A DNA stretch of 64,000 nucleotides. Source: Blastocystis sp. Blastoise. Its lineage: Eukaryota > Protista > Bigyra: Opalinata. The translations under genes and the position numbers were made by a program. The notes below the pieces were generated by a model. That model saw only the letters and a program-made list of their open reading frames with translations, was not told the origin of the DNA and did not search any database. The DNA is taken from NCBI GenBank assembly GCA_039096225.1, contig JBBPEB010000025.1, positions 62,001 to 126,000 of the forward strand. The letters are read 5' to 3'. This document shows, one piece after another, positions 5,732 through 31,065 of the stretch (within the stretch, counting starts at the first letter, position 1; each line of letters begins with the position of its first letter).

Positions 5732-5732
5732 A

Positions 5733-11779: not shown

Positions 11780-11848
11780 TTTTATATGATTTTAATCAAC
11801 AAAACAAAAAATAATTAATGATAAGTTAAAGATAAATAAATGATTTTA

Positions 11849-12514: not shown

Positions 12515-12612
12515 TTTTATTAAATGAATTAATTATGAAATTATAAACAAAACAATATTTTTTTAGAATAATATAAAGTTGATACAAATAATAAAAATAT
12601 CAAATAAATAAA

Positions 12613-13836
12613 TTAATTGGTAGCACCATCTCTAACAAATTTAACAAATATAAAATGAGCATATAAAGTATAAGGACCAGTAACAGTTCCACCAGTATAT
12701 TCAGTTAATAATGAGATATTAACTTCACAACCACTACGCGTATTGACATCAACAACACTTGAAATAGGGAATATATAAATAGGTTGTTCATACCACTTTT
12801 CACCGTTTAAAGGAGATTGAGGATGACTATTACATCTCCAAGTATTATAAAGCATAGCATTAGGAATAATTTGTGATGGATTCGTTGTTTTATACGTAGT
12901 AGGGAAATCCGTCTTTGGTAAGATATTTTGACCACCAATTTGGAATTGACATGATTTTAATAATTCAGTTTTAATAGGAATCATGCTCTTCTCTTGATTT
13001 GTGAAGTATAACATACAATAATCAGGTACGAAAACAACACTTCTATTGGATAAGAATTGTTGTGGAGTTGGTGTACCTGATACTGATGCTTGTGAATAAA
13101 CAGGTGTAGTGAATGCAGATATCTGACAATTATTAGGAATACATTTAATCAAAGCACGTGGATCATTACCAAAATTAATATCATAAATTTGTTGAAGATG
13201 AATATAAACACGATCAAATTTCAATGCAGTGATTACAGTGGTACCGGTAAATAGATTCTTTAAATAATTTGTAACGAATTGCATCTTCAAAGATTTTACT
13301 TTAATAGCACAATCAAATGTACCAAGACCAGTAATAAGAGATAAAGGAATAATAACTTGAGCTTTTTCTTTCATTTCCATTCCAGCAATACTACTCAACG
13401 TGTTATTATATAAGCATTCTGTCATACTATACATAGATTTATCAATTTCATCTTTACTTAATTCTTTAATAGTAACAAATTTTCTTGCTTTACTGGATTC
13501 AATAGAAGATTCAGAATAATTAATAAGAATATCTTGACCCGTAGGAGATACAAACGTAAGATCTGTAGTAATTTTATCAATAATACTATAGATATTAGAA
13601 TGTTGTACAACTGAAGATGTTGAATTTTTGTCTCTAGTACCAGTAATATTGAAATTCAGTTCTAAGAATGAATTACTGAAATCAATATAAGGGCTATCCA
13701 CTGAATTATATAAGAATTCAAATGGATAAGGTTGATTTAATAAATCTTGACTTGTAGAAACTAGAATAGGAATTTGTACAGGTTTAATAGTTTGATTTGC
13801 CTTTGAAGGTAAGAATTGTCTTGGGAATCCTTCCAT
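12613..13836 (-). CDS. Major capsid protein 1 (putative double jelly-roll)
   Basis: YIDFSNSFLELNFNI N-terminal motif, IIPL and VPDYCMLYF; 407 aa, beta-rich, in a capsid-module context. Confidence 0.75.
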   Translation of the reverse strand: MEGFPRQFLPSKANQTIKPVQIPILVSTSQDLLNQPYPFEFLYNSVDSPYIDFSNSFLELNFNITGTRDKNSTSSVVQHSNIYSIIDKITTDLTFVSPTGQDILINYSESSIESSKARKFVTIKELSKDEIDKSMYSMTECLYNNTLSSIAGMEMKEKAQVIIPLSLITGLGTFDCAIKVKSLKMQFVTNYLKNLFTGTTVITALKFDRVYIHLQQIYDINFGNDPRALIKCIPNNCQISAFTTPVYSQASVSGTPTPQQFLSNRSVVFVPDYCMLYFTNQEKSMIPIKTELLKSCQFQIGGQNILPKTDFPTTYKTTNPSQIIPNAMLYNTWRCNSHPQSPLNGEKWYEQPIYIFPISSVVDVNTRSGCEVNISLLTEYTGGTVTGPYTLYAHFIFVKFVRDGATN

Positions 13837-14012
13837 GTTAGTAATTATTGTTTATGTATTTTTTTTAACAAAATAAAAATAAAATAATAATAATATTTTA
13901 TAATTATTAATTAATTTTAATTTTTATAACAAAACAAATGATTTTATTATAGAATAGAATAGAATTAATTAAACAAGTTAACGTTAAGAATAGTAAGTAA
14001 GAAATATTAAAT

Positions 14013-15506
14013 TTAAATATCACGTACACTACGTACAGCGATCATATGTAAGGTATAAGGAGAACTATCACTTAGATCAGTAGTAGTATGTTTATAAATA
14101 CCAGCATGAGAAGCTACCTTATAAGAGGCAGTATCAGCTTCCCAATGATATTTTGTCTTTTTATCTGTTGGATCAACGTAACTTTTCCATTGACACGTTT
14201 GTCCATCAGGAACAGTGGATGAATCAATATGTTCATATTTAACATCATGAACATCAACATTACAATCGAAATTCAATTCAATACCACTATCTGATTGGAT
14301 ATTCATTAATGATTTTGTTGGAATAATATAAATAGGATGTTTAATCCATTCATCATATTTAAGAATAGTTTCAGGATTTGAATTATCAGCCCATAAACAA
14401 TATAAATTCTTATTAGGACAAGATAAACTAGTAGTTTCTGCATTATTGAAGACATGACCTTTTGTAGTAAGATTATGATAATACATTTGAGTAGGGAATT
14501 CAGTTTGAGGGAACATTTGAACATCACCAATCAAACAACTTTGATATGTTGGCCATACATTTGGACTAGCTATATTACTAATAGTTGTTGAACTATACCC
14601 ATTTGTAAACCAAAATAATATATATTCAGGTATAAATGGTAAAGCTCTATTGATATTGAAATGATTAGTAGTTAATCTTGTATTTTGATAATCAACTTGA
14701 ATACATGTAGGTATAGTTTTATATAATTCATTCGATTGGAACTGAATATCTTTATAAGTCATTAAATTCATAGTAGCTGATTCAATCTTGAATGTACTAA
14801 ACCATTTTTCATCATCTAAATGTAACCATTCGGTAGTTTTGGTAGCAGTACCATTCTTGAAATAAATACTCATTTTATTATCAATTAATGATTCAATAGT
14901 ACTAGTTCTAAATAACATATTGAAATGTTTAGTTAATATTAAAGAATCTCCATCAACACCTAAACCACTAATAAGATATAAAGGAATAGCAATATGAATA
15001 GATTCATTTGGATGTGCACGTATATAACGAATAGAATTCAATTCATAAGTATCTGCAGATAAATCTTCACCATACATAGATTTTTCTAAATCATTTTTAC
15101 TAATATCTTTTAATAATATCATTTTACGACCACGTGAAGCATGTGTACAATTTTCTTCATATTTTAAAGCACGATCAGATCCATCAGGTAATGTATAAAC
15201 CATTTCAACATCAGTAGTATCAATAATAGAATAAATATTAGCTTTTTGAACTAATTGATCCAAGAAATATTGACATAATTGATCATAGGTGAAACTAGCA
15301 GAAGTACCTGTTTCATCTAAATAAACAGAAACTGGTCCAGCTTTATCTGTTACAGTTGCTTTGACAGTAAGATCCAAATAGGATTGATTGAAATTGATAT
15401 AAGTATTATCCACATTAGTCCAATGATATTGAAAGATATAAGGACTAGATAGAATATCAGTATTGCTTTGAATAGGAATATTATCTTTAATTCTTAAGAT
15501 TCTCAT
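14013..15506 (-). CDS. Major capsid protein 2 (paralog of 12613-13836 with insertions)
   Basis: Colinear shared blocks: YINFNQSYLDL, NIYSIID, KSMY, IPLYLISGLG, FIPEYILFWFTN, PQTEFPT, PIYIIP, PYTL. Confidence 0.75.
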   Translation of the reverse strand: MRILRIKDNIPIQSNTDILSSPYIFQYHWTNVDNTYINFNQSYLDLTVKATVTDKAGPVSVYLDETGTSASFTYDQLCQYFLDQLVQKANIYSIIDTTDVEMVYTLPDGSDRALKYEENCTHASRGRKMILLKDISKNDLEKSMYGEDLSADTYELNSIRYIRAHPNESIHIAIPLYLISGLGVDGDSLILTKHFNMLFRTSTIESLIDNKMSIYFKNGTATKTTEWLHLDDEKWFSTFKIESATMNLMTYKDIQFQSNELYKTIPTCIQVDYQNTRLTTNHFNINRALPFIPEYILFWFTNGYSSTTISNIASPNVWPTYQSCLIGDVQMFPQTEFPTQMYYHNLTTKGHVFNNAETTSLSCPNKNLYCLWADNSNPETILKYDEWIKHPIYIIPTKSLMNIQSDSGIELNFDCNVDVHDVKYEHIDSSTVPDGQTCQWKSYVDPTDKKTKYHWEADTASYKVASHAGIYKHTTTDLSDSSPYTLHMIAVRSVRDI

Positions 15507-15576
15507 TTTTTTTAATAAAAAATATTAATAAATAAAATAAAATTAATATAAATTATAATTTAATAAATTAGAAAAT

Positions 15577-18015
15577 ATGGAACTTGATGATGATAATTAT
15601 GAAGAACAGACTTCATTAGAAGAGAAGGATACTCGTATTAAAACACATGTAGTCCCTATTGATGTTCGTTGTATTGATAATCAATTCAATATACATTTAT
15701 CGAATTCTATTGATATCACTAAAAATATCATTTCTTATATTGATCTTAATTTAATTGGTAGTGAAAGTGTGCCTCTATTTGATACATTCACAAAAACACA
15801 AATATTCAAATATATAAATACTCGTGTCAATGGTAATAGTTCCGTATATACAATCACTTTAGATCAGAAAAATTATTCCATTCCACAATTATTAGAACTA
15901 TGTCATTTTGATGTATGTGATAGACCAGTAATAAAAGATTCTCCTGATATTGATCCTACTGTCAAAATTAATGAATACCCTACAATAACCATTGATAGAG
16001 ATGATTGGTATTGTGAATTCACAATTGCTAATACTAGACGTGGCTTTTATTTCCCAAGAGGAACCTATACAGATATAGAATTTTGGTGGGTTGCTGTATG
16101 TTGTGTATCAGCTGTATGGAAAAACCCGGTAGGTAATCGAATAATGATGAAATATGATGATGATACTATAACAATATATAGACCTGAAGTCACCACTTAT
16201 AATATTCCTGTTACAACAACAGGAACTTATAAATTTAATGGATTCTTTACTAATGGAAGTAATGATTATAAAACATATACTGTTTCAACACAAGATAGTG
16301 AAAATAAAATAACTTGTGAAGTAAATGGTGCTCATACATTTTATTTTAATTGGTCAAGTAGTAATATACTCAGTTTAGAAAGGCAATTATTCACTGGTTT
16401 GAAAATAAATAGCAATACATTGGTGTATACTACACCTCAAAAAGAAATTACATTAAATAGAATGAAAAGAACAGTTACAGTTGAAGATAAATATAATACT
16501 ATGATTATTAGACATATAAATAAATATGATGGTAATTATGACACTACATTCACTGTTCCTCCTGGTGACTATACTGAAGATGAATTCTATGATTTATTAG
16601 AAAGTTCAATTAATAATACTATTAAAACAAATTATTTAAGTATAACAAAAGATGCTCAAACTATGGACGATAAGGATGGATATATTTTATATTTATCATT
16701 TCAAGATATTGATTCAACATCATGGACACTTACAGCTATAGATATAGAACATTCATTATTTAAGTATCGTGGTGCTCTACATAATATACGTCCTGATTTA
16801 GTTTATGATGAACAAGGATGTTTTGCTTGGCATGTATCTTATGGTAAACAATTATTACCAGATACACCTGTTGATTTGAATACATTAGATTTAGATGGTA
16901 ATTATAAGTGTTATACTGATAGTTATCATATAGATTTTTCTCAAGCTCAAGAATTAGGTGAAATCCTAGGTTATAATAAATTAGGTCATGATGAAATTAT
17001 TAATTATGGTATTCATAATATTGATAGTAGTCGTCCAAAAGGAATGTTAATAGCTCAATCGAATATAGTAGATAATAGTCAGAATTCTTTATATTCATTC
17101 AATGTGAATAATTATAAAGGCAATAATGAATTTCATGATATTATGAATATTAATGTGTCTCCTTATTTGAATACAATACAAGATATTACAATACGATATA
17201 CTGATAAAAATAAACAATATGTGAATTTCAATAATAATTGTATTTTAAGAGGATTCTTAGAATTCTCAGATACAGTAGATACGATTCAACCAAGTGAAAC
17301 TATTAAGAAATTATGTTTGAATTGTTTAACAGCAGACACACAATTCTATGCTGAATATCCTACATTGAATATCCAAAATAAGATCTTAAAAGATATTATT
17401 ATTCAAAATGATACTGATACGATCCAAACAAATGCATCTAAATTATGTACTGGATATATAAATGGATCTTATTATCCAACATTTAGTTTTCCTTTATCGG
17501 ATAAATATGTTACATATAGTAATATAAATTCTCCAATCACAATTGATCATCATATCGATTTAAGATTTGATGAATTATTCAAAGGAAATATCATTTGTAA
17601 TATATGTGAACCGAATGGTAGTGATATACGTTTCAAAGCTTATGATGAAGTATATTGTGATTTTAGTACAAGTAAGAATTTAATTTATGAATTGAAGAAA
17701 ACCAATGTCTATGGATATCAATACTTAACGAATATACAAATTATATCAGTGTATGGTCAATCCACTGATTACTTATATCCTATTTCATTAAGATGTTTTA
17801 CTAATGAATATGAGAATAATATTCATGTTATTGATACTACAAATCTACCTTATTACTATTCGAATGGTATTAAATATGAAGGTATATCGAATAAGATCAA
17901 TAAGAATGTTTATTATTGTAATCGTAAATTATTAAAGTTATTACCTCATGATAATATGTTCTTTATTACTTGTGATTATCCTTGTGTTGTTTTATTAACT
18001 ATCTCTTATATATAA
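15577..18015 (+). CDS. Large minor-capsid-like / fibre-like protein (812 aa)
   Basis: Three mCP-type motifs (LDQKNYSIPQL, FPRGTYTDIEF, VPPGDYTEDEF) plus LGEILGY, QSNIV and ITIRYTDKNKQYVNFNN. Confidence 0.6.
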   Translation: MELDDDNYEEQTSLEEKDTRIKTHVVPIDVRCIDNQFNIHLSNSIDITKNIISYIDLNLIGSESVPLFDTFTKTQIFKYINTRVNGNSSVYTITLDQKNYSIPQLLELCHFDVCDRPVIKDSPDIDPTVKINEYPTITIDRDDWYCEFTIANTRRGFYFPRGTYTDIEFWWVAVCCVSAVWKNPVGNRIMMKYDDDTITIYRPEVTTYNIPVTTTGTYKFNGFFTNGSNDYKTYTVSTQDSENKITCEVNGAHTFYFNWSSSNILSLERQLFTGLKINSNTLVYTTPQKEITLNRMKRTVTVEDKYNTMIIRHINKYDGNYDTTFTVPPGDYTEDEFYDLLESSINNTIKTNYLSITKDAQTMDDKDGYILYLSFQDIDSTSWTLTAIDIEHSLFKYRGALHNIRPDLVYDEQGCFAWHVSYGKQLLPDTPVDLNTLDLDGNYKCYTDSYHIDFSQAQELGEILGYNKLGHDEIINYGIHNIDSSRPKGMLIAQSNIVDNSQNSLYSFNVNNYKGNNEFHDIMNINVSPYLNTIQDITIRYTDKNKQYVNFNNNCILRGFLEFSDTVDTIQPSETIKKLCLNCLTADTQFYAEYPTLNIQNKILKDIIIQNDTDTIQTNASKLCTGYINGSYYPTFSFPLSDKYVTYSNINSPITIDHHIDLRFDELFKGNIICNICEPNGSDIRFKAYDEVYCDFSTSKNLIYELKKTNVYGYQYLTNIQIISVYGQSTDYLYPISLRCFTNEYENNIHVIDTTNLPYYYSNGIKYEGISNKINKNVYYCNRKLLKLLPHDNMFFITCDYPCVVLLTISYI

Positions 18016-18084
18016 ATATTTTAAGTCATTTCATTTAAATTAAAAAATGTTTTGTTATATTATTCATTTAAAAATTATTAAAAA

Positions 18085-18507
18085 ATGGAGCCTAAATCTG
18101 TATCTGAATCCTTACATTCTTTATCAAGTACAAGTTCAACAAGTTCAGATAGTTCAACAACAACCACATTATCCGAAGAAGAAATAGAAAAGAAAAATAC
18201 TTTATTAGAATTTATTATAAAAGCTATAAAATGTTTATTTGAGAAATCAACTGAATTCTTTCAATTAATTGTTAAAAATATAGATATTCATTGTAATTGT
18301 TGTAATCCACAAACAAAGAAAGTCTATTATAAGACAATGAAAATACAACAAACTATTATTGAAGAAGAAGTCAAACATATATCAGAAGTCTTGAATGAAT
18401 TAGAAGAAATTGATTCTAATCAAAATGAATCAATACAAGAATTAGCTGTTCAATTAATGAAATTAAATATAAGTGTTGATTCTATTGTTCAATCTCTTCA
18501 TTTATAA
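18085..18507 (+). CDS. Hypothetical viral protein (140 aa; Ser-rich N-terminus, coiled-coil C-terminus)
   Basis: ATG-initiated ORF followed by the element's 3' motif at 18542. Confidence 0.7.
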   Translation: MEPKSVSESLHSLSSTSSTSSDSSTTTTLSEEEIEKKNTLLEFIIKAIKCLFEKSTEFFQLIVKNIDIHCNCCNPQTKKVYYKTMKIQQTIIEEEVKHISEVLNELEEIDSNQNESIQELAVQLMKLNISVDSIVQSLHL

Positions 18508-18574
18508 TTCTATGAAATGTTATAAAATATTAATAATAAATTTGTTTTGTTTATAAATAATTTAATTTTTAATA

Positions 18575-20371
18575 ATGCAATCAACAGGTTATTCAGATAA
18601 AGATTGTGAGGAATTCTTTACAAATTGTATAGATCAATTATTACATTGGAAGAAAATACAATTATCAACAAGTATAAATTGGAAGAAATGGATCAAGACA
18701 ATATGTAAGAAATTTCGTAATGAAGAACGAATTCAAATCGATGATATGGAAGAACCGTTCTTTTGTGTAGAAGTGTTAACAGATCCATTTCAATTTCAAA
18801 ATGTTATGCAACATAAACAAACAGAAGCTCCTGGACAACAAGGTGGATTATCCAATACTACTGTAGCTAATTATATGCAAATGATTACATATATAATGAA
18901 GAATATATCTATTTGTACAGATGATGAAGATATCATTAATTATAAAGCATTTACTCCACAAAATATAAAGAAATGGGAACATTTATGGGGTTCTTTACAA
19001 ATAGATGCTACTTATTCAAGACATTATGAAATCACTCAGAAAATTATTAATTGTGAAGCTGATTGGGGAGAAATCATTAATATCACCAAAAAGAATTATT
19101 TAGAGAATCCTAATGATTTATATTATGTGAATAGTTATTTATTAGTTTTAACTTATGATACATTATGTGCTCGTAATGATTATAATGATTGTGTAATCTA
19201 TACTCGTGGTCAACAAATTCCTTTATCGTTAAGAAGAACAACCAATTATATTGATTTAAATACTCTGACTATTCATGTGAATGATACAAAGAATCGATTT
19301 GAAATCGGTAAGAATGAATATCCTACTTATCAATATTTATCAGAAGAATATTTGAATGTCTTAGCTAGATCCTTACGTTTATTTCCAAGACATTATTTAT
19401 TTGTTACTGAGAATGGTGGTAAAGTACGTGATTTGAAATTTGGTGATGAATATATAAAACCCCATTTAGGCTGGATTTATAAAACACAACAGAATAATTC
19501 TTTAATTAATGGTTGTGATATTATAAGACATTTATTTGCTCAATATTATTATAGATTATCAAGAGAAGCACAATTCCAACATAATGATTCAGAACACGAA
19601 TCTAAAGGTGTAGAACTCTTTGAAAATTCGATTATGAAGATGTTACATAGTCAATCAACACATATGGAAAATTATATATCTCCTTATTTATCTTCTCATT
19701 CAACTAAATTGCAAGATTTAGATAATAAAACAAGAACATTTCATATTGATATGAATAATATTACTTATACAAGAGAAATTAATCAATTAAATAAATTATT
19801 ATTTTTATGTAAACGATTTAATGATCGTATAGAACAATATGATGAAGACTATGAAGATGTATTTGGTAAAGAGAATTTCAATATGAAATCAGAATCGATA
19901 TTAAGTAGTCTAGAACAATATTCATCAGATAATGATACTATAATGATTACATTAAGATATTATAAAGATCTATTAAAGCATCATTATCCAGATAAAACAG
20001 ATTTAGAAAATGAATTACCTGTAGGATGTACATTAGAATCTGAAGAAGTTCCAGATGATTCTAGAGATCGTTATAATCGTTTTATACGTAATAAACAATT
20101 ATTACCTGATCATTTACATAATAATACAACGGATTCAGAATTAACGAATACTCAAGCATCTCTTATGCAACAAAATACTCAAGATGAAAACTCTACACCT
20201 ATAGTTATGAATAATTCAGATACTTATGCATTACGTAGTCTTTCTACTATGCCTCCTTTAGAACCTATTCATCGTGGTCATGGTTTATTGAAAAAACATA
20301 AAAGTAATGCATTCTTTAAAGTCAAAGTCCCTAAAAAACATTTTCATGGAATTCAATTTAAATTTTATTAA
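18575..20371 (+). CDS. Tyrosine recombinase 1 (598 aa, long C-terminal extension)
   Basis: Catalytic-like R (LCARNDY), K (DTKN), R (IIRHLFA) and H-x8-Y (MLHSQSTHMENY). Confidence 0.8.
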   Translation: MQSTGYSDKDCEEFFTNCIDQLLHWKKIQLSTSINWKKWIKTICKKFRNEERIQIDDMEEPFFCVEVLTDPFQFQNVMQHKQTEAPGQQGGLSNTTVANYMQMITYIMKNISICTDDEDIINYKAFTPQNIKKWEHLWGSLQIDATYSRHYEITQKIINCEADWGEIINITKKNYLENPNDLYYVNSYLLVLTYDTLCARNDYNDCVIYTRGQQIPLSLRRTTNYIDLNTLTIHVNDTKNRFEIGKNEYPTYQYLSEEYLNVLARSLRLFPRHYLFVTENGGKVRDLKFGDEYIKPHLGWIYKTQQNNSLINGCDIIRHLFAQYYYRLSREAQFQHNDSEHESKGVELFENSIMKMLHSQSTHMENYISPYLSSHSTKLQDLDNKTRTFHIDMNNITYTREINQLNKLLFLCKRFNDRIEQYDEDYEDVFGKENFNMKSESILSSLEQYSSDNDTIMITLRYYKDLLKHHYPDKTDLENELPVGCTLESEEVPDDSRDRYNRFIRNKQLLPDHLHNNTTDSELTNTQASLMQQNTQDENSTPIVMNNSDTYALRSLSTMPPLEPIHRGHGLLKKHKSNAFFKVKVPKKHFHGIQFKFY

Positions 20372-20424
20372 TTTTTTAAACATATAAACAAAACAACTTT
20401 TTATAGTAAAAAATAAATATATAT

Positions 20425-23400
20425 TTAATTTGGTATAGCATATAAAGTATTATCTATTAAAATTCGTTTTGTTGATGACGTATTATGATATTGATCTTCA
20501 CTATAAACAATTTCTTCTTTCTTAGATAAACAATTGGATAAACAGAATAAATCTGTATCTACACATTCATTATAAGTATTATCAATCATTAAACCACAAA
20601 TACCAATAGCATTCCCTCCCTTATAGAAATTTGAAGTATGTTTTCTATGAATATTCACAATATCTATAGAATTAAATGTATCTTTACTACTTAAACAACC
20701 AAATAAAGCATTTGTAAATTTATCTAAATCTTTCTTAATCGTAAATTGATTATTATTATTCACTTTCTTATAACTATTAAAAATATCTTCAATAGTAACT
20801 ACATTCAAATAATAAGGATCTATAGTAATATGGTTATCAACAAAAGATTTCAAATCATATCCTTCTGTACTACGATCAAAGAATCGTTTCTTACATTCAC
20901 TTATATGATATTCATTATCTAATTCATGCATATCTAATTGCATACTAGAATAGAAATAATTACTTACTAGATAACTAAAGATAATTGAACGATTCTGATA
21001 GAATTTATCAGATAAAGTATAATCCATTTCATAATGATTGGGTTTCAATCTCTTTTCTACTGTCTGTTTACGTTTCGGTAAATTATGATCTACATAATCT
21101 TCATATAAATTAGCATTACCAGGAGGGAAATAACGACAACATGATGGTAAGAAACAAACTCTTCTTTCAATAGGACCAGCATTCACAGCAGTAGGTTGGA
21201 TATTACTTGTCATAAATAAAGTACCCGTGAAATGAACTTTTGTAAATATATTACTGAATAATTTACGAGCACTAGCACCTTCTTTCTTTTCTGCTATTTC
21301 TTTAAAGACTTTAGAAGAGAATGGATTAAATGTTTTCTTTCTACCAGTAACATCTTCTTCTATTAATTCATTCATATAATACATAGTCTTATTAGACATA
21401 TCTACAATCTTAGGAGCTATAGATGTTTCTTCTAAATTATCTGGATTTACTATAATACATTGATTACTACCTACAATACGAGAAATTAAATCAGTTGTTA
21501 TTGTTTTACCATTACTACCTGTACTACCATATAATATATAAGAAACTGTTTTCTGAGTATTGACATAGAAAGCAGTGGTTAAGATACGTAACATAATACT
21601 TTCATATTTCTTATCGAATTCACAATATCTTGCAATATGTTGTTCAAATAATTGGATAATATCTTTCTGTTCATTATTAATATTCCAACTTACATTAAAT
21701 TCAGTATCAATTAATAAATCTTCAAACACCATATCTTCTTTATGATATGGTTGGATATAATATTGTCTAGGATCTTCTTCTGTTGATTCTTTTGGATATA
21801 AATAGCCAAGTTGTGTATAGATAACACGTTCTTTATGAACCATATACGTATCTAAATATTCTTTATAAGATTTACCATAAGTCTTCAAATAACGATTCAA
21901 CCATTCTTTATAATGATATTCATTAGTAACAGAAGCAGACATTATTTTATCAACTATTTTTTGATGTTGTTCATTCTCTTTGGAATATAATCTTGATAAT
22001 TTGAATTTCTCTACAATCGATTTCATAAATGTAGTTATTTTGGTTTCAAAGAAATTAATATCATAATTATTCTTACAACGTCTTAAGATATTATATTCAT
22101 CAAATGTATATAAGATAAAATTATCTTTATCTAATATAATAGAAACAATTTCATTAAATTCTAATAATTGAAATAACATAACTAATGTTTGTGAATCTAC
22201 AAGATTAAAGGATTGAATACATTCTAAAATAGACATAAATATGAAATCATTATCATCATCTTTATTAAATAATTTATTATCCATTAATATCTTCAAAATA
22301 TAATTATTCGATAAATGAGTAGGATCAACTTGTATATGATTCCATGTAGATTCAATTACATCATCACTTCGATCATGACCATAACGTAATGAATAATTTT
22401 TAAATAATTCTAATCCTCTTGTTGTATTACAAATCTGTTTTGCTGCACAACATAATTTATACCAAGTATTATGAGATTCAAAATAATTCATATCTTCAAT
22501 AGAACCAATCAATAATAAATATCGTTCTAATAAAGCTTCTTTAGATGCTGTAGTATCCAATATAGTATCTGTAGAAATCAACATAGGAATATCTTTAATA
22601 TCTTGTATAGAACATAATATAGTACGTGAACAATTATTTAATCTTGCATAATAACGTTTATAACGTGAATATTGTTTTAATTTATAAAAAATAATAGGAT
22701 TAATAATATCACTTATAATATCATCTTCATTCTTATAATTCAATAATGTTTTGAAATAATAATGTTCATCGATTTCATCATCTATTTTCTTCCATGTTTT
22801 ATTGGTATATTCTTCATATAATTTATAAGTAGATGGAGAATTATCTTTACTACAACCAAGAAACATACAACCATTATTCTTTCTGGGTTTACCAATAACA
22901 TTATAATCAATGAATTCTTTTATATCTAAATTATATGTTTTACATAAATCAACCAATTTGGTATTCAGAATCATACTATTATATAAGAAAAATAAATAAT
23001 CACCATTTACAAACCAATTTGTATATATATGAATTCCCCATGAATAATGTATTTCATTATGAACTGTCTTCTTATTCACTTCTTTCTTTGTATACACAAG
23101 CGAAATAAATTCTTGATTATAATAATGAATACAATGATTACATATTTCTTCTATAAATTCATGAATAAAAGAATCTGTTAGAAAAGAAAAATCATTTGAT
23201 ATTTGGTGATAATCTAAATCAAACCATAATCTTCTATAATTAGTTGATGTATTACAAGGAGTACAATCAATATAATGTAATAATTCTTTTGGATTTTGAT
23301 AATTAGTAAACAGACTTTTATAAAATGGTAATGGATTTGGTATAATAATTTCACTATGATTATCTTTTGAATTATCATGATTAAAGGAACCAAAAGTATA

Positions 23401-23427
23401 AACAAAATGAATTTGTGAATTTTCCAT
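20425..23427 (-). CDS. AEP primase-polymerase + PriCT-2 + SF3 (D5-like) helicase
   Basis: LWFDLDY, WGIHIY, PriCT-2-like NTWYKL..GLELFKNYS, Walker A YGSTGSNGKT, Walker B YYMNE, motif C FMTSN, Arg finger IERRV. Likely ATG at 23427 (the track start at 23475 is TTG). Confidence 0.9.
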   Translation of the reverse strand: MENSQIHFVYTFGSFNHDNSKDNHSEIIIPNPLPFYKSLFTNYQNPKELLHYIDCTPCNTSTNYRRLWFDLDYHQISNDFSFLTDSFIHEFIEEICNHCIHYYNQEFISLVYTKKEVNKKTVHNEIHYSWGIHIYTNWFVNGDYLFFLYNSMILNTKLVDLCKTYNLDIKEFIDYNVIGKPRKNNGCMFLGCSKDNSPSTYKLYEEYTNKTWKKIDDEIDEHYYFKTLLNYKNEDDIISDIINPIIFYKLKQYSRYKRYYARLNNCSRTILCSIQDIKDIPMLISTDTILDTTASKEALLERYLLLIGSIEDMNYFESHNTWYKLCCAAKQICNTTRGLELFKNYSLRYGHDRSDDVIESTWNHIQVDPTHLSNNYILKILMDNKLFNKDDDNDFIFMSILECIQSFNLVDSQTLVMLFQLLEFNEIVSIILDKDNFILYTFDEYNILRRCKNNYDINFFETKITTFMKSIVEKFKLSRLYSKENEQHQKIVDKIMSASVTNEYHYKEWLNRYLKTYGKSYKEYLDTYMVHKERVIYTQLGYLYPKESTEEDPRQYYIQPYHKEDMVFEDLLIDTEFNVSWNINNEQKDIIQLFEQHIARYCEFDKKYESIMLRILTTAFYVNTQKTVSYILYGSTGSNGKTITTDLISRIVGSNQCIIVNPDNLEETSIAPKIVDMSNKTMYYMNELIEEDVTGRKKTFNPFSSKVFKEIAEKKEGASARKLFSNIFTKVHFTGTLFMTSNIQPTAVNAGPIERRVCFLPSCCRYFPPGNANLYEDYVDHNLPKRKQTVEKRLKPNHYEMDYTLSDKFYQNRSIIFSYLVSNYFYSSMQLDMHELDNEYHISECKKRFFDRSTEGYDLKSFVDNHITIDPYYLNVVTIEDIFNSYKKVNNNNQFTIKKDLDKFTNALFGCLSSKDTFNSIDIVNIHRKHTSNFYKGGNAIGICGLMIDNTYNECVDTDLFCLSNCLSKKEEIVYSEDQYHNTSSTKRILIDNTLYAIPN

Positions 23428-23513
23428 GATTATTTGACTTATAAATAATGAAAATAAATATGGCATAAAATTCAAAACAAATAATATATTAAAGATTCTA
23501 GAAGTCAGTTTTA

Positions 23514-23633
23514 GAAGCTTCTAGAACCTTCTAGAACATTCAAGAACATTCTAGAACATTCTATAATAGTAAATATTACTTTATATTTTTAAATGTTCTA
23601 GAACCTTCGAGAACCTTCGAGAACCTTCTAGAA
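23514..23633. promoter_or_regulatory. Two HSE arrays (10 units at 23514-23561; 8 units at 23596-23633) upstream of the primase-helicase
   Basis: Perfect 5-bp alternation of GAA and TTC. Confidence 0.8.
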
Positions 23634-23743
23634 CATCCTTTTTATACTTTAGTGTTTTAAATGTATATACAATAAACAAAACAATTTTCAATGATTTTTT
23701 ACAAGTTTATAAGTAAAAATAGAAAAATAAACAAGAAAAATAA

Positions 23744-24367
23744 TTAAATTTCAATTGGTTCTTGACTATTAATATATGTACATGAATGAGGCCATCCATT
23801 CTTATCATATAAAATACCATCCCAGAAATACATTTGTTTTGAAGGATCTCTTTTAATCTTGTTAATACTCTTAGCATGAACAACTTCATAAGAATAAACT
23901 TTACCTTTTTCATCATAAAGGAATCCATCTTCCATATGGAATTTCATAATATCAAAATCATCATCTTTAGAATTCGAATGTTCTTTAGAATCTTCAGAAC
24001 ATAAAATAGTAGTTCTATCACTTTCTAAAAGATCTTCAGTATTGATAATATCTTGAATATCTTGTTCTTCGTTAAGTTGTTGAGTATAAATATCAGCAGC
24101 GAATTCTTCATAATCTTCAAGACCTTTAATAACCGCGTTTATACGTTTTAAAGCTGATCTATAGTTTTCGACTTCGAAAGAAGCAAGACGTTCTTTAGAT
24201 TTTGCAATACCCAATAGATTCTTTTCTCTATTCAATTGAGACTGATGTAAATCAATATCACGAAGAACATTCTTATGAACTTCAACAGCCTTCTTAGAAT
24301 TCTTAAGAAGTTCCATACGAACAGTTTGAAGACATTTACGGGAATCAGCAGAAAGATTAAATTGCAT
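23744..24367 (-). CDS. Hypothetical viral coiled-coil protein (~207 aa)
   Basis: First in-frame ATG at 24367 (MQFNLS); 3' motif at 23675. Confidence 0.7.
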   Translation of the reverse strand: MQFNLSADSRKCLQTVRMELLKNSKKAVEVHKNVLRDIDLHQSQLNREKNLLGIAKSKERLASFEVENYRSALKRINAVIKGLEDYEEFAADIYTQQLNEEQDIQDIINTEDLLESDRTTILCSEDSKEHSNSKDDDFDIMKFHMEDGFLYDEKGKVYSYEVVHAKSINKIKRDPSKQMYFWDGILYDKNGWPHSCTYINSQEPIEI

Positions 24368-24478
24368 TATAATCGCGAATATCGTTACAGAGAGAAAATT
24401 TGTATTTATCAAAATGAAATAAATAATACATTTAAATGGAATATTAAATATTCTAGGAGACAGTGTAGAATCTCTATG

Positions 24479-24496
24479 GAATGTTCTAGAAGGTTC
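24479..24496. promoter_or_regulatory. HSE (4 units)
   Basis: GAAtgTTCtaGAAggTTC. Confidence 0.65.
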
Positions 24497-24501
24497 ATTT
24501 G

Positions 24502-24649
24502 ATTGGCTAATTTTGTCGACTTAGCATTTTTTATTTGTGTTTCGATGACGAGTATAGTCGGCATCTGTAATTTGATTGGATAAAAAAATTAGTAAAACAC
24601 AATTAGACGATGACGACGATGTGTCATACGAAATAAGTTATTTTATTGG
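24502..24649. promoter_or_regulatory. Three inverted CCAAT boxes interleaved with TGACG half-sites in a divergent promoter
   Basis: ATTGG at 24502, 24575 and 24645; GATGACGA containing TGACG at 24546 and 24611. Confidence 0.45.
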
Positions 24650-24765
24650 CTTATTTTCCAGCTGGAAGCAATAGGCTTTTGTTAGCAACTGAAATGAAGA
24701 ACTGTACACTAAAAATAGTATATTTAATATATTGTATAAAAATACTTTTGAAGGTTTAAATAATC

Positions 24766-25293
24766 ATGGAAATTCCTGATAGTCTTTCTGCCAGTTTATC
24801 CCCTTTCGGTCAAGCCATGATATCCCCCTTGTTGAATCCATTTGAAAATAGTGTTTCTGAAAATCCTATGGCTTTACCCAATGATAATGATTTCTGTTTT
24901 AATTCGCGTGACGAAATCATGTTTGAAGATCCACCTCAAGAAATTCATCCAATCAATGATGTTTACGTATCTAAAAATCCAGATAGATATCATTCGGTTA
25001 ACAATCAACCAATACAATTTCAAGATCAAGTAAATACAAATCCTGATAAGCAAGCATTATTATTTACAAATGAGGAGTTAACAAATATATCCAGTCAATT
25101 CGAATCTTTATTTCAAACTATTGAAACAGCTGATAATATATTAAATGGTATTTATTGTACTGTTGATCATTTAAAAACAAAGATTGAAAGTCAGAAACAA
25201 GATTTGAAACAGATTCATGATGATTCTAAAGAAATTGTTTCATTATTATCCGAATATTCTATTCCTTCTATGTCTGAAATATTTGATCATTAA
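24766..25293 (+). CDS. Hypothetical viral protein (175 aa; acidic/Pro-rich N-terminus, coiled-coil C-terminus)
   Basis: ATG-initiated ORF; 3' motif at 25316. Confidence 0.75.
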   Translation: MEIPDSLSASLSPFGQAMISPLLNPFENSVSENPMALPNDNDFCFNSRDEIMFEDPPQEIHPINDVYVSKNPDRYHSVNNQPIQFQDQVNTNPDKQALLFTNEELTNISSQFESLFQTIETADNILNGIYCTVDHLKTKIESQKQDLKQIHDDSKEIVSLLSEYSIPSMSEIFDH

Positions 25294-25488
25294 TTTATTT
25301 ATTTAATTAATTATTTTGTTTTGTTTATTTTTTTTTAATTTAATTTCACAAAGTTTAAATGGAAAATAGAATAGTTTCAAATAGAATTCTTGAATGGTCT
25401 AATGGATCTATTAAAGAAATATGTAACTACAGTATCATGGTTCGATTCCGTTAAAATGTTTCCATTAGATTATTCAAGTGTTCTTTTT

Positions 25489-25536
25489 TTCTAGAACCTT
25501 CTCGAACATTCTAGAACCTTCTAGAACCTTCTCGAA
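25489..25536. promoter_or_regulatory. HSE array (10 units) upstream of the SSB-like gene
   Basis: TTCtaGAAccTTCtcGAAcaTTCtaGAAccTTCtaGAAccTTCtcGAA. Confidence 0.8.
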
Positions 25537-25612
25537 AATTGATTCATTTGAAAAGAATATCGTAAAATATTAGTATTAAAATACTTATATTTTTACTAAA
25601 TACTTAACTAAA

Positions 25613-26206
25613 ATGTCTTCAACTGAATTTAAGAAACCTGCTATTCTTGATACTTCTAACTTTAATTTACAATGGGATGACACCAAAGAAAATGCTGTTC
25701 TTTTAAATAATAATCATCGTGTATGTATTTCTACTGATGCTACACCATGTTTATTTGGTTATATTGTTACACGTGATAAATGGACTTTATTAACAATTGA
25801 AGATGATAATCAAGTATTCTTAACTGCTTATAAAGAACTTTATCGTAAATTATGTGAATTATGTCCTGATGGTGATATTGTTAATTTTGTACGTATGGAT
25901 AATGGTAAATATAAGATTACAATTAAAGTACCTATTAATGCATCGAAGAATGTTACTATTGATATCACTGATAAAAGAGATAAGAAGATTAATATCGGTA
26001 AAGATCCTAAGTTAACTTACGAAGAAATACGTGAAAAGTATATTCCACCAAATACGTTATGTAAAGTATTATTTACAATACATGGTATTCATCGTTATAA
26101 TAACAAGTATTATATTGGTTTATATGCTCGTTCTATTAAAGTCATCGATAAATCTACGAAGAATACTAATAGTAATGATACTATTATTGATTTAACTAAT
26201 TTATAA
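25613..26206 (+). CDS. Putative single-stranded DNA-binding protein (NCLDV / T7 gp2.5-like OB fold)
   Basis: C-terminal IPPNTLCKVLFTIHGIHRYNNKYYIGLYARSIKV pattern resembles the NCLDV SSB beta strands; 197 aa. Confidence 0.55.
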   Translation: MSSTEFKKPAILDTSNFNLQWDDTKENAVLLNNNHRVCISTDATPCLFGYIVTRDKWTLLTIEDDNQVFLTAYKELYRKLCELCPDGDIVNFVRMDNGKYKITIKVPINASKNVTIDITDKRDKKINIGKDPKLTYEEIREKYIPPNTLCKVLFTIHGIHRYNNKYYIGLYARSIKVIDKSTKNTNSNDTIIDLTNL

Positions 26207-26280
26207 ATTTTTAATGTTAAATTTATTTTTTATTAATATATTTGTTTTGTTTATAAATAATTTTATAATTGAAATAAAAA

Positions 26281-27909
26281 ATGCAAAGTTGTATCTTAGG
26301 AATGCCAAGTCCTGGTACTTTTGGTATGAATTTAATTTCAACTGGAAAAGAATATAGGCGATATAATACACAACCATTACATAAAATGGATCAATATAAT
26401 CCAATATTTCATGAAATAGGTCCAAATTCATCTATGCCTGTGTCTACTTTAGAAAGTAAAGAAATACATGATGGCAAAGAAGATGATTATGTAGATCGTT
26501 CTAAAACATTTGGTAAAGATGCTGTTCCACAAGGAAATGGTGCTTTAATTCGTGCTAGAGCAGCAGGTAAAGGTGTAATGAAAGCAGCTGGTCCAGAAGA
26601 AGATAAAATAGATGGTGAAGATCGTCAATATAAAGTATTAAATCCATGTAAACCAAGACGTAAATCTGGTAGAGGAATTATTCCAAATAAATCAGAAATC
26701 AATAAATTAGAGAATAATCAAGGTTCTGGTATTGGTGATGCAATTAAAAATAAAGTAAAAGATATGTATCAACGAAATGTATTAGATATAAGAGATGCTA
26801 TTGTAGATAAAAAAGCTAATAGAAAAGCTCGTGATGCATTAGCTATTTTAGCTCAATATGTTGGTGATGGTCATCATGATCTTGATGATGAATTCAAAAG
26901 ATTCTATGAACATAAAATAAAACGTGGTGGAAAGATTCCTATATCTGTTGCTTCAGCAATTATGAATGCAATTAAAAATAAGAAAATGATTAAGAATCCA
27001 AAATTAAGAAGAATGTTAAGACCTTCAATTATACCAAAATATATAGATTTAGATTCAGCTCAAAGTGGTGATGGTATATTAAGAGTTAAAAGAGGTGGTG
27101 GATTCTGGGATGGAGTTATGAACTATGCACCAGCTCTTTTAGGTGTAGTTGATAAAGGTATGGATTCTTTTGCTAAAGGTAGAAAAGCTTATTATGATAC
27201 ACATTTGGCACAACAGTCAAGTGAATTAAATGATATGGAATTTGAAATGGAAAAATTAAAACGTCAACAAGCATTAAATGAAATGAAAAAACAAATAGGT
27301 TCAGGAAATACTATAAATAAGATGTTTGAAGGATATTATGATGTAGCTGATGAAATGCAAGATGCTATTGATGAAGATGATAGATTACATCCACAACCCG
27401 TTGTTCAACCTCCACCACCTCCACAACAACAAGTTGCTAGACATCCTCAACCTCAACCTCCTCAACCTTATAAACCAATGTCTCGTGATGAACAAAGTTA
27501 TCCTTATAAGATTTATGGTTTCCCTCAAAATGATAAAGAGAAAGTCGATAGAAAATGGAAAGAAGATGAAAGGGATAAACGAATAGCTGCAAGAAGAGCT
27601 AAACGTAGAGGTTATGGTGGTCGAGTTAAATTAAGTAAAGAAGAATTCTTAGAACGAATGAGAAGAGGAAAAGAAGCTAAAAAGAAAAAAGGTGGTGATT
27701 TACCTCCATTAGTAACAGCTTATACAGATTTTGTAATACCTGCACAAGTAGCTCAAAGGAAACGTAAAGTAGCTAAGAATGATTTAAAACAATTACAAAT
27801 TATAAAACAGAAGATGGATAATAATGAAATATTAGATAGAGGTGAGCAAATGTTTTGGAAAGAAAAGAAGTATATGTTATCAAAAAACTCAGGGGAGGGG
27901 ATCTGGTAA
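26281..27909 (+). CDS. Basic GxG-rich virion core precursor (542 aa)
   Basis: About 11 GxG/GG motifs (QGNGA, AGKGV, SGRGI, QGSGI, RGGKI, SGDGI, RGGGF, IGSGN, YGGRV, KGGDL, SGEGI); overlaps the protease ORF. Confidence 0.7.
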   Translation: MQSCILGMPSPGTFGMNLISTGKEYRRYNTQPLHKMDQYNPIFHEIGPNSSMPVSTLESKEIHDGKEDDYVDRSKTFGKDAVPQGNGALIRARAAGKGVMKAAGPEEDKIDGEDRQYKVLNPCKPRRKSGRGIIPNKSEINKLENNQGSGIGDAIKNKVKDMYQRNVLDIRDAIVDKKANRKARDALAILAQYVGDGHHDLDDEFKRFYEHKIKRGGKIPISVASAIMNAIKNKKMIKNPKLRRMLRPSIIPKYIDLDSAQSGDGILRVKRGGGFWDGVMNYAPALLGVVDKGMDSFAKGRKAYYDTHLAQQSSELNDMEFEMEKLKRQQALNEMKKQIGSGNTINKMFEGYYDVADEMQDAIDEDDRLHPQPVVQPPPPPQQQVARHPQPQPPQPYKPMSRDEQSYPYKIYGFPQNDKEKVDRKWKEDERDKRIAARRAKRRGYGGRVKLSKEEFLERMRRGKEAKKKKGGDLPPLVTAYTDFVIPAQVAQRKRKVAKNDLKQLQIIKQKMDNNEILDRGEQMFWKEKKYMLSKNSGEGIW

Positions 27910-28001
27910 AGAGTAAAGATGAAAAACTTATTCAAAATTCAATGAATTGTGATAATCCTATTATATCTGATAAAACTCGTCATGTTACTCCTAGATCCCC
28001 T
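27882..28001 (+). other. Predicted -1 programmed ribosomal frameshift signal
   Basis: A_AAA_AAC at 27882-27888 in the correct phase; 7-nt spacer; stem AGGGGATCTGG (27896-27906) / CTAGATCCCCT (27991-28001), extended by GAGTAA/TTACTC. Confidence 0.75.
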
Positions 28002-28475
28002 GATAATTTCAAACAAACTCTATCTCAATATTGTAATATACCCAATTCTTTAATATCTCAATTATATAATTATGCTTATTTAAATAAACCTACCTCTTCT
28101 GTTGCTTGTGATCGTGCTGAAAATGTTATGAAACAATTAAATAAAACGAATTCTCAATCTTATAATTATTATAATAGTTATGATGATTTTGAACAAAATA
28201 TAGATCAAGATCAAACTAAATTTAATATGATCTTCCATGAAAGTCCTAGTGATCCTTATAATGGTCATTTTGAAGCTGTTATTTATAATGGTAATAAAAA
28301 TATAGAACACTATTCATCATTAGGAAATAAACCTACTTTTTCAAAATCATTTATTCAAAATCATAATATTCAATATAATCCTATTCAACACCAAAAAACT
28401 ACAAGTAATGCAAATGGTTGCTTTTATTATTCTTTACTTTATTTACTTTCTAATGGAAATCTTATGCCTTGTTAA
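27888..28475 (+). CDS. Adenain/Ulp1-like cysteine protease (in the -1 frame of the upstream ORF; first own ATG at 27942)
   Basis: NGHFEAV...IEHYSSLG...QYNPIQHQKTTSNANGCFYY matches the Polinton protease pattern GxHW..YFDSFG..YN..QxQ..S..CG.YC. Confidence 0.8.
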   Translation, partial: LRGGDLVKSKDEKLIQNSMNCDNPIISDKTRHVTPRSPDNFKQTLSQYCNIPNSLISQLYNYAYLNKPTSSVACDRAENVMKQLNKTNSQSYNYYNSYDDFEQNIDQDQTKFNMIFHESPSDPYNGHFEAVIYNGNKNIEHYSSLGNKPTFSKSFIQNHNIQYNPIQHQKTTSNANGCFYYSLLYLLSNGNLMPC

Positions 28476-28479
28476 AACC

Positions 28480-28497
28480 TTCTAGAATATTCTAGAA
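28480..28497. promoter_or_regulatory. HSE (4 units)
   Basis: TTCtaGAAtaTTCtaGAA. Confidence 0.65.
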
Positions 28498-28561
28498 TCT
28501 CTAATTTATTATATTAATATTTTGTATAATTAATTTGTTTTGTTTAATATTTAATACTATA

Positions 28562-28717
28562 ATGACAAAGAAACGATTTGGCAATTACTACTTAGATCGT
28601 AGTGCAGAAATTTTAGAGAATGTAAATGAAATACTGTCAGTTATTGAAATTGTTCTTATTATTATATATATTTTACTTTACTTTTATATGTCCAAGAAAC
28701 ATTCTAGAACATTCTAG
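28562..28717 (+). CDS. Small single-TM protein (51 aa)
   Basis: ATG at 28562; hydrophobic ILSVIEIVLIIIYILLYFYM; HSE upstream and 3' motif downstream. Confidence 0.5.
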   Translation: MTKKRFGNYYLDRSAEILENVNEILSVIEIVLIIIYILLYFYMSKKHSRTF

Positions 28718-28724
28718 AACATTC
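28702..28724. promoter_or_regulatory. HSE (5 units)
   Basis: TTCtaGAAcaTTCtaGAAcaTTC. Confidence 0.7.
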
Positions 28725-28819
28725 ATTTTGAACTGGCTCTATTTGTAGAATCTTTAATTTATTATATTAGTATTTTATATAATTAATTTGTTTTGTTTAA
28801 TCATTGGTTAATTTAAATA

Positions 28820-29194
28820 ATGAACAAGAAATATCTTAGTTATTCTTATTTTTGTCGTGTGATGAAGAATCTAAAAGAAGAAGGAATTAAATCTAAAAAG
28901 AATGAAATAGCGAATCTATTAGAACAATTTTTAAATAACAATAACAACAAAAATCTTAGTGATTTACAACTAAGTTATTGTAGAAATATGCTACTTTATA
29001 TAGATGATCCTGTGATTCATCAACGTCTTGAAATGCTATTGGATAAACAATATATGAAGAATGAGAATCAATATCAAGATGATAAGAATCTTATTCAACC
29101 CAATAATATGTTTATGCCTACTATGAAAAGTAATCAACAACAAAATCAATATCAAAATAATAATAATACTCTATCTTTCTTACCTTTTAATTAA
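28820..29194 (+). CDS. Hypothetical viral protein (124 aa; N/Q-rich tail)
   Basis: ATG-initiated ORF; variant 3' motif TTGTTTAGTT at 29218. Confidence 0.65.
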   Translation: MNKKYLSYSYFCRVMKNLKEEGIKSKKNEIANLLEQFLNNNNNKNLSDLQLSYCRNMLLYIDDPVIHQRLEMLLDKQYMKNENQYQDDKNLIQPNNMFMPTMKSNQQQNQYQNNNNTLSFLPFN

Positions 29195-29267
29195 TTTTTA
29201 TATCCTTTTATTACTAGTTGTTTAGTTATATTCAAATTTAAAACAAAACAAGCATGAAAACATAAAA

Positions 29268-30203
29268 TTATTCAATTAATTTTTTAAATAAATTATTATT
29301 TTCTAAAGATACATAAGAATTAATATGTGTATAATCATTATGACATAAAGCAGAAGCAGAATTTTCTATATCTTGGAATGTATTGGTTGTAGTTGTAGCA
29401 TATAATTTTCTTAATGCATTAATGGTCAATTTTGGATGGATTTGTTTTAAATGCTTATTCACAAACCAATCAAATGCTTTAGTAGTAAATCCAGTTCGTA
29501 CAGAAGATTCAAATATAAATTTACGATTTGGATTTCTTTTTAAGAGTAATTCTAGATCTTCAATCAATTCTTTTGGTGCATCTAATTGAATTGTAGAGTA
29601 TTTACCAGCAGTTTTATAATCATTTAATAGAATAGAACCAGTATGTTTCTCTTTATCATAAACAATATAATTCTTATGAATAGCTGGATCAATAGTATCT
29701 TCTGGAGTTAGAATGAATAATTGAGCATAATCAGCACGAGCAGGAGGAAGATAGGAGTAAAAATCTAATATTAATCGTAATGGATTATAATTTTCTAATT
29801 TATCGTGATATTCATGTAAATATGGAGTCGTAATACCATCTTTAATAAGATCTTGAATTAAAGTACGTTTCTTATTATCCAGATATTTTTCATACATTGC
29901 ATTAATAATCACATAAAATTCACACCATTTATTTAAAATACCTTCTTTATTTAATGAAGAAACATTACGTATAATAAATAATATCAATTCACATAACGAT
30001 TTCATTGGACTAATTTTGATTTTACGTTCATTTACCATATAATCCATGAATGAATAAGGATTCTTTAAGAATTCTGAGAACTTTTTAAATGGTAATGGGA
30101 AAATATATAAATTGAAATAATTGGTTAAACGTTTTTTCCAAATATCAGAATAATTTGAATTTTGTATAACCAAAAGATACTTGTCATAATTTGTATTTTT
30201 CAT
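29268..30203 (-). CDS. Tyrosine recombinase 2 (311 aa)
   Basis: LPPARADY (R), DYKTAGKY (K), NALRKLYAT (R) and LCHNDYTHINSY (H-x8-Y). Confidence 0.85.
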   Translation of the reverse strand: MKNTNYDKYLLVIQNSNYSDIWKKRLTNYFNLYIFPLPFKKFSEFLKNPYSFMDYMVNERKIKISPMKSLCELILFIIRNVSSLNKEGILNKWCEFYVIINAMYEKYLDNKKRTLIQDLIKDGITTPYLHEYHDKLENYNPLRLILDFYSYLPPARADYAQLFILTPEDTIDPAIHKNYIVYDKEKHTGSILLNDYKTAGKYSTIQLDAPKELIEDLELLLKRNPNRKFIFESSVRTGFTTKAFDWFVNKHLKQIHPKLTINALRKLYATTTTNTFQDIENSASALCHNDYTHINSYVSLENNNLFKKLIE

Positions 30204-30291
30204 TGTTTTTCTTAAGTAGAATCTTTAAAACTTCTATTTTCAAAAGAATAATACATAAGAAAATCAAAATAAAATATCTAAGATTCTCATG

Positions 30292-30339
30292 TTCTCGAAT
30301 GTTCTAGAAGTTTCGAGAATGTTCTAGAATGTTCTAGAA
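30292..30339. promoter_or_regulatory. HSE array (10 units) upstream of tyrosine recombinase 2, at the inner edge of the right TIR
   Basis: TTCtcGAAtgTTCtaGAAgtTTCgaGAAtgTTCtaGAAtgTTCtaGAA. Confidence 0.8.
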
Positions 30340-31063
30340 AATTTATATTTTTCCATATCGGTCGCTCATGTTTCCAAAAGTCTCTCGTTATAATCGTGGT
30401 GGTGGGTACATCTTTTTACAAGACCACACCACCACCAGCTTTTCTTTCACCCACTATAAATACATACCTTGATCACTTTACTCTTTTTATATAAATTTTT
30501 TTATGATTATCATGACTTTTTATATTATTTATTGATCACTATACATACATTTTTATTTTTATATATTCCCGTGATTATTTTTATTATTTCTTTTTAGATA
30601 GAACCATCCATTTCATCTTTTCTCTATATAAAGGGAGGGTCGGGGTGTGTGTTTATTTAGCACATTCTGTGCTTCTTTTCGTATTTCTTTCTGTATTCCC
30701 GTGATTATTTTACTCACTTTACCAACGATGGAGTCATTTTCCATGAATATTCTCTGTAAAGGGGAGGGTTGGACTGTGTATTTTATTTCTTTTATGATTA
30801 CTATGAGTTTCTCCTTGATCACTTTACGTTTCACGTTGGAATCGGAACACAAATAAATTAAAAATAAATAAACATGGGAAAAAATAAATACACACACACA
30901 CTACCCTACACTCCCATGGTTATTTTACTTCAGAAATGTTATTAATTCTTCCGTCGAGAACAAAAAGGGGGGATGTCTTCCCCGCTTATGGCTGCGCGCG
31001 TCGCGCAGACTCTATGCGGGGTTTGCATACCCCCTTCTGCAGTTCGAAGAACGGAAGAATTAT
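30302..31063 (-). repeat. Right terminal inverted repeat (762 bp)
   Basis: Reverse complement of 5732-6493. Confidence 0.95.
30943..31062. repeat. GC-rich imperfect terminal palindrome/hairpin (right)
   Basis: Mirror of 5733-5852. Confidence 0.9.
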
Positions 31064-31065
31064 TA
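31064..31065. repeat. TA target-site duplication, right copy
   Basis: ...GGAAGAATTAT-TA-ATTTGTCAG. Confidence 0.75.

Follow-up and report, generated by a model that had tools for sequence, protein, structure and literature searches.

In retroviral gag-pro, the protease is read in the −1 frame relative to a structural polyprotein (PMC8310308). Mouse mammary tumour virus (MMTV), human T-cell leukaemia virus, bovine leukaemia virus and intracisternal A-particles reach it through A_AAA_AAC, a spacer of 6–8 nt and a 3′ structure (PMC3835772). For MMTV gag-pro, the table in that article gives the heptamer as AAAAAAC and the spacer as 7 nt. A_AAA_AAC ranks with the shiftiest heptamers in eukaryotes, and the halovirus g-t genes use it too (PMC5009743); the eukaryotic DNA viruses known to frameshift have been described as 'relatively few' (PMC8310308). 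We analysed 64,000 nt of Blastocystis sp. Blastoise (contig JBBPEB010000025.1, positions 62,001 to 126,000, assembly GCA_039096225.1; this whole stretch is called the window, and positions are counted from its first nucleotide). The window carries an integrated polinton-like element in which a core-like open reading frame (ORF), here ORF1, runs through A_AAA_AAC and is overlapped in the −1 frame by a protease ORF. A sequence-only reading had taken this heptamer to be the MMTV slippery site, as the table bears out, and had proposed a core-protease fusion made by ribosomal frameshifting.

The locus resembles retroviral gag-pro in its heptamer, its spacer and predicted 3′ structure, the placing of the protease in the −1 frame and, as predicted here, a low-dose protease that releases itself. 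It differs in belonging to an integrating element with double-stranded DNA (dsDNA), in encoding a cysteine (CE-clan) instead of an aspartic protease, in having a predicted long-loop stem instead of a compact pseudoknot, and in that some relatives of the element are plain in-frame fusions.

In dsDNA viruses of bacteria and archaea, −1 slippage likewise fixes the ratio of virion gene products, which are tail chaperones or capsid extensions and not a maturation protease. Examples are lambda G/GT, T7, Listeria PSA and halovirus g-t (PMC8310308, PMC5009743).

Penton and Hexon-Adenain ('Hexain') −1 frameshifts have been predicted by KnotInFrame in adintoviruses and adenoviruses in a preprint (PMC11071296). 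That prediction shares with ours the broad virus group, the protease class and the mechanism, and in both cases the slippage is a prediction only. It differs in that the partner is a capsid protein and the basis one sentence on KnotInFrame (PMC11071296), whereas the partner here is core-like, has natural in-frame fusions among its relatives and is joined by a conserved trans-frame leader. Adenain and the maturation proteases of virophages as well as polinton-like viruses (PLVs; Peptidase_C5, clan CE) have the order His...Gln...Cys, which the window protease shares together with a possible likeness in fold; as in PLVs, it sits with a putative packaging ATPase in an element bounded by terminal inverted repeats (TIRs) (PMC9952930). 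Unlike those proteases, which are stand-alone ORFs, this family is joined to a core-like gene by fusion or overlap, is longer by about 50 residues at the N terminus and carries Ser at the usual position of the catalytic acid.

The available text of four articles (PMC10120064, PMC9952930, PMC8502044 and PMC8537868) makes no mention of a core-protease frameshift. A literature search over an incomplete collection of articles gave no account of this element family or of its junction and, for polinton-like viruses, only the hint in PMC11071296. The mechanism as such is known from other viruses, and hexon-adenain frameshifts had already been floated by the preprint (PMC11071296).

The junction between ORF1 and the protease frame

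ORF1 (26281..27909, + strand) encodes 542 aa and matched no family. It is likely to be a DNA-condensing core precursor polyprotein, judging from a basic composition and the nine GG/GxG motifs that it contains. Its 3′ end reads TCA AAA AAC TCA GGG GAG GGG ATC TGG TAA. The AAAAAAC (27882..27888, + strand) starts at the third base of a codon, and hence in X_XXY_YYZ phase, seven codons ahead of the stop. The −1-frame ORF (27846..28475, + strand) is open from 27846 to its stop at 28473–28475, across the heptamer, and its translation includes KKLRGGDLVKSKDEKLIQNSMNCD. It comprises a conserved leader (a GG motif and SKDEKLIQ) and a putative CE-clan/adenain-like cysteine protease, of which ATG 27942 opens a complete 177-aa domain. 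A −1 slip at the heptamer would yield 536+195=731 aa, 195 codons being read beyond the slip. The phase of the heptamer, the open −1 frame and the length of about 731 aa, all put forward in the sequence-only reading, agree with the codon register and the computed translation.

A stimulatory stem is predicted at 27896..28001 (+ strand), after a 7-nt spacer (27889..27895, + strand); in an alternative register, 27889–27896 pairs with 27996–28003 over 8 bp. As had been proposed, the first helix (27896–27906/27991–28001) has 11 bp with one G-U pair and begins seven nucleotides past the heptamer, with predicted pair probabilities of 0.89–1.0. One proposed extension, GAGTAA/TTACTC (27911–27916/27985–27990), was recovered as a 6-bp helix (pair probabilities 0.81–1.0), whereas ATGA/TCAT was not: the best fold has 27918–27922/27977–27981 instead, at a pair probability of about 0.7. 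The ORF1 stop (27907–27909) is located in the bulge above the first helix. Folding of the 122-nt region, which was picked post hoc, gave −31.2 kcal/mol (z −2.61), and two of 200 shuffles were equally good.

The 18 long ORFs of the element comprise 6963 codon positions, at which 22 canonical heptamers stand in phase. The 110 nt downstream of the site at 27882 fold more stably than those of any other (−31.2 kcal/mol, the next being −24.7), and no other site leads into a −1 ORF of at least 50 codons. Slippery heptamers are depleted in these ORFs (22 against 70±7 expected), with none of 300 synonymous shuffles as low. In-phase A_AAA_AA is found four times against 27 expected from synonymous shuffles, and an A run of at least seven only once against 20 expected (ORFs within 6781–30203). 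Plain avoidance of A runs could alternatively account for the depletion. The lone A7 run forms an in-phase A_AAA_AAA (9651–9680, minus strand) five codons ahead of the stop of ORF 9651–10688. This site has a 13-codon −1 extension and a weak structure (−14 kcal/mol), and it is probably due to chance.

The junction is also exceptional in its lack of a post-stop motif. Of the 18 element ORFs, 15 have TGTTTTGTT no more than 100 nt past the stop (16 if one mismatch is allowed). Of 13 head-to-tail junctions, 12 have it, and core-to-protease is the one that does not. Within 27700–28475 it is missing even at one mismatch, and the stretch from 25529 to 28480 is free of TTCTAGAA-type repeats; the earlier observation that, unlike other tandem pairs, these two ORFs are separated by neither kind of signal was therefore correct. 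At each of the two convergent junctions TGTTTTGTT comes after the stops, and the 60 nt upstream of the divergent pair at 15.5 kb do not contain it; a 3′-end role fits this distribution. It resembles the downstream element reported for human Blastocystis subtypes (PMC10690189), and its position points to such a role here. The first motif of this type downstream of ORF1, TTTGTTTTGTT at 28534..28544 (+ strand), is likely to be the 3′-end signal of a joint core and protease mRNA.

We consider it probable that a minority of ribosomes slip by −1 at A_AAA_AAC and make the 731-aa core-protease fusion from one mRNA. The motif near 28535 would mark the end of this single mRNA. At 27907 most ribosomes would stop and release the core protein alone, while those that slip would produce the fusion, which would be packaged together with the core in sub-stoichiometric amounts. 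By cutting at GG sites, for example at the RGG of LRGG just past the slip, the protease would release itself, and it would then cut GG/GxG motifs in the ORF1 product and other virion proteins; here we assume that the adenain cleavage rule applies to the ORF1 sites. In-frame relatives would make core and protease at 1:1, and the window lineage would lower the protease dose in the manner of retroviral gag-pro.

Two other ORFs of the element (6781–8271 and 9651–10688) are basic, with four GG/GxG motifs each, and may be further substrates of the same protease.

Relatives of the proposed fusion and identity of the protease

Comparisons with relatives were made throughout on protein sequences, and fusion calls derived from metagenomes were assumed to be unspliced. 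The closest homologues of ORF1 are Blastocystis proteins by database name (85–98% identity). ORF1 is also homologous to residues 1–409 of the in-frame fusion P0048 (617 aa; a cluster of 30, with five 617-aa members among 15 listed). These residues correspond to window frame +1, and residues 431–617 correspond to frame +3. P0028 and P0003 likewise cover the core and protease frames in one protein, as does P0049 (533 aa, three members), a eukaryotic gene model. In split relatives, 190-aa and 177-aa proteases were called on Logan/ENA contigs of up to 24 kb. The called start of two such proteases, P0001 and P0002, lies 13 codons upstream of the Met, exactly at the window codon CTG 27903.

In every one of the ten homologues listed, fused or split, S[KR][DN]E..[LIR]Q is kept within the 13 residues preceding the protease Met, and GG or GxG often stands a few residues ahead. 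Because this leader is conserved, the −1 frame upstream of ATG 27942 is coding. In the sister-family models P0046 and P0051, the only two that cover the position, HLDCD replaces MNCD; since Leu stands there, the Met is dispensable. The four models of the sister family (P0046, P0047, P0050 and P0051), whose host bears the same name, place the joint between core and protease at three different positions, which is what a gene caller confronted with two frames would be expected to produce. The final 14 residues are shared by 21 core paralogues, one of which is the window's own: none of the 14 columns varies, against 24 of the previous 60.

Taken together, the in-frame relatives, the conserved −1 leader, the Met lacking in the sister family and the missing post-stop motif make the core-protease fusion likely to be a natural product, and −1 frameshifting is probably the best route to it. 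These comparisons add to the case that had been made from the window. The signal is real and well placed and, as a candidate site of slippage, has good indirect support.

Under the same host name there are at least three element families with a core-protease module, of which one seems to be an in-frame fusion and the other two are split (counted from proteins P0046–P0052 and P0049/P0067/P0068). A tree of 13 protease domains, in which one of ten branches was well supported, was too weak to order the fused and split states.

The protease ORF itself gave no direct Pfam match. Its profile matches P0071 (E 6e-4), which in turn scores 22.1 bits with Peptidase_C5 (cut-off 21.3). Atlas neighbours of the protease at 0.92–0.94 carry PF00770 on 13–62% of their members, at a recognition of 2215, which is under the 2300 mark. 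The structural model is of modest quality (pLDDT 56.8), and Foldseek returned no match to it at E≤0.001. VIA ranks 1–15 for this model are almost all CE-clan by title, with Z 5.5 at best (root-mean-square deviation 3.9, 121 aligned); Z was 4.8 with pS273R of African swine fever virus and 2.7 with the adenovirus protease. GHF, HQ and GC align across the protease family in the catalytic order His...Gln...Cys (His109, Gln151 and Cys160, counted from ATG 27942). At the third catalytic acid, which we take to lie in a strand of the form F-[DE]-P/S-x-G, the window protease has Ser (YSSLG) where P0071 and P0069 have Asp, and a nearby Glu may substitute for it. By these indirect links the protease appears to be of CE-clan or adenain-like type and to work as an adenain does, with Ser in place of the usual acid; its strict membership of the adenain family is putative.

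Alternative routes to the protease

Several observations weigh against a −1 frameshift. In a 301-nt window around the stem, folding is unremarkable (z −0.92; 18 of 100 shuffles). The site is outside the top 25 of 5046 sliding 110-nt windows (mean −13.2, standard deviation 5.3), a set made up of hairpins of the TIRs, arrays of repeats and one patch rich in Pro/Gln, and the predicted 84-nt loop is unlike compact retroviral pseudoknots. P0049 and P0046–51 are eukaryotic gene models in which the core/protease joints are not visible. The 21 core paralogues are not independent, since they share one organism name and are built as mosaics from two alleles. The start of P0001 and P0002 at the CTG 27903 position may be a near-cognate codon or could be a true ATG. 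Homologous DNA was not found in any of seven collection scans (four of viral contigs, two of metagenomes and one of genomes). Host genes of the tortoise lineage, unlike those of human subtypes, showed no significant end motif (PMC10690189), so the role of the post-stop motif is argued from its position. Codon-compatibility of the stem was mixed, with 20 of 21 pairs in the split P0046 and also 18 of 22 in the fused P0003. Finally, 58 GT..AG pairs in this region are able to fuse the frames, of which 14 span at most 120 nt.

Two arguments were dropped. Amino-acid identity drives the codon-compatibility score, which is high in the fused P0003 as well. That a stand-alone protease is missing from the protein collection had seemed to favour the fusion, but so are seven of seven other element proteins.

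Removal of a short intron from part of the transcripts could also join core to protease. This spliced junction, which the sequence-only reading had named in general terms as a refuting outcome, now has a specific form: a candidate 23-nt intron GTATAT..CAG (27870..27892, + strand) is computed to give the same frame change and to keep the conserved leader, resulting in a 723-aa fusion with the junction ...WKEKK/GGDL.... Its donor GTATAT matches six of nine host donor regions examined, the invariant tail of the core paralogues starts about where it starts, and the host genome is intron-rich. However, seven host introns that were frame-checked among the nine regions, all inferred from the sequence of one host gene, measure 33–167 nt and have TAG ends after TA-rich tracts. 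Introns are 30 nt long in human subtypes and longer in tortoise isolates (PMC10690189). Alternative introns of 29 and 41 nt suffer from an acceptor rich in purines or from a weak donor. Moreover, 21 database models of ORF1 terminate at the in-frame stop, and an intron would leave the geometry of heptamer, spacer and stem to coincidence. We regard splicing as unlikely. RNA data were uninformative on expression and splicing: in run X1, 30 contigs matched the window, none of them over 27532–27912, and in runs X2 and X3 no contigs matched.

It is quite improbable that a separate transcript, reinitiation or leaky scanning yields the protease alone, from ATG 27942 or the near-cognate CTG 27903, as after a simple gene fission. 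The completeness of the domain behind ATG 27942 would fit such a start, relatives of the P0001/P0002 type are called as stand-alone ORFs of 177 and 190 aa, and adenain is an ORF of its own in adenoviruses (PMC8537868). On the other hand, the Met is Leu in both sister models and the leader upstream of it is conserved. Neither the post-stop motif nor the TTCTAGAA repeat is present at the junction, both candidate start codons are buried within the predicted stem, and ATG 27942 lacks the AT-rich untranslated gap found before the other 17 ORFs.

That the two frames are really one gene, broken by a one-base homopolymer assembly error or an inactivating mutation of an endogenous copy, is very improbable: relatives are in frame, the break sits at A and G runs and the 21 paralogues may come from a single assembly pipeline, but the tail frame is common to 20 other copies, frames stay open through 19 A/T runs of at least six in element ORFs, in which longer A runs are rare, the Logan/ENA relatives are split too, and the copy is young because its TIRs are 100% identical.

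The integrated element and what a frameshifted protease would mean

The element (5730..31065, no strand assigned; MELD-type) is 25.3 kb long and ends in perfect 764-nt TIRs (5730–6493 and 30302–31065, 100% complementary). Its size and ends are those of a polinton-like virus (integrated dsDNA of 15–45 kb with TIRs). It is filed as polinton-like by this anatomy, a jelly-roll capsid being presumed. Two tandem paralogous beta-rich ORFs (12613–13836 and 14013–15506, 29% mutual identity) are likely duplicated major capsid proteins; they gave no Pfam or PHROG match, and the single-sequence model of a candidate (pLDDT 33.5) was too poor for a structure search. A sequence search of the PDB gave no relevant match. 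Among the other ORFs are one that is P-loop ATPase-like (10742–11779; PHROG 2666, terminase, E 1.2e-10; Pfam FtsK, E 0.05), a primase-helicase (20425–23466; PHROG 1156, E 2.5e-9) and one that is tyrosine-recombinase-like (29268–30203; weak Pfam match, E 0.084). Protein-primed PolB and an rve integrase had no match among the 17 element ORFs scanned with Pfam and PHROG. In contrast to Polinton/Maverick proper, the element thus has a primase-helicase and a tyrosine-recombinase-like ORF instead of PolB and rve.

The element splits a hAT transposase gene, of which 2744–5548 lies upstream and the dimerisation domain, to 31524, downstream. Both junctions (5720–5735 and 31060–31075) show a TA, which may be a target duplication of 2 bp. 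No hairpins of the element are stronger than those in the outer 115 nt of each TIR (5731–5845 and 30950–31065), which reach −55 kcal/mol per 110 nt and may serve as a terminus for replication or packaging. TTCTAGAA-type units of 10 nt form arrays (6456–6493, 23496–23633, 25489–25536, 28480–28497, 28702–28719 and 30292–30339) within the TIRs and also upstream of several ORFs. They resemble what we take to be heat-shock elements and could make the element stress-inducible. Outside the element, a host gene at 57232–62900, presumably chitin-synthase-like by its motifs, has many AT-rich GT..TAG introns (33–167 nt where checked).

Blastocystis polinton-like dsDNA viruses may well have converged on the gag-pro design, with the protease as a C-terminal domain of the core polyprotein, either in frame or behind a −1 frameshift; the relatives alive today would then display both the starting and the end state of a change from a 1:1 fusion to a low protease dose set by recoding. 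If this is true, a virus of the adenovirus lineage would dose and deliver its maturation protease by letting it ride on the core protein. The natural pair of in-frame and frameshifted forms would then be material for studying the origin of recoding, and where a PLV genome has a 'protease' called as stand-alone, this may be a truncated fusion.

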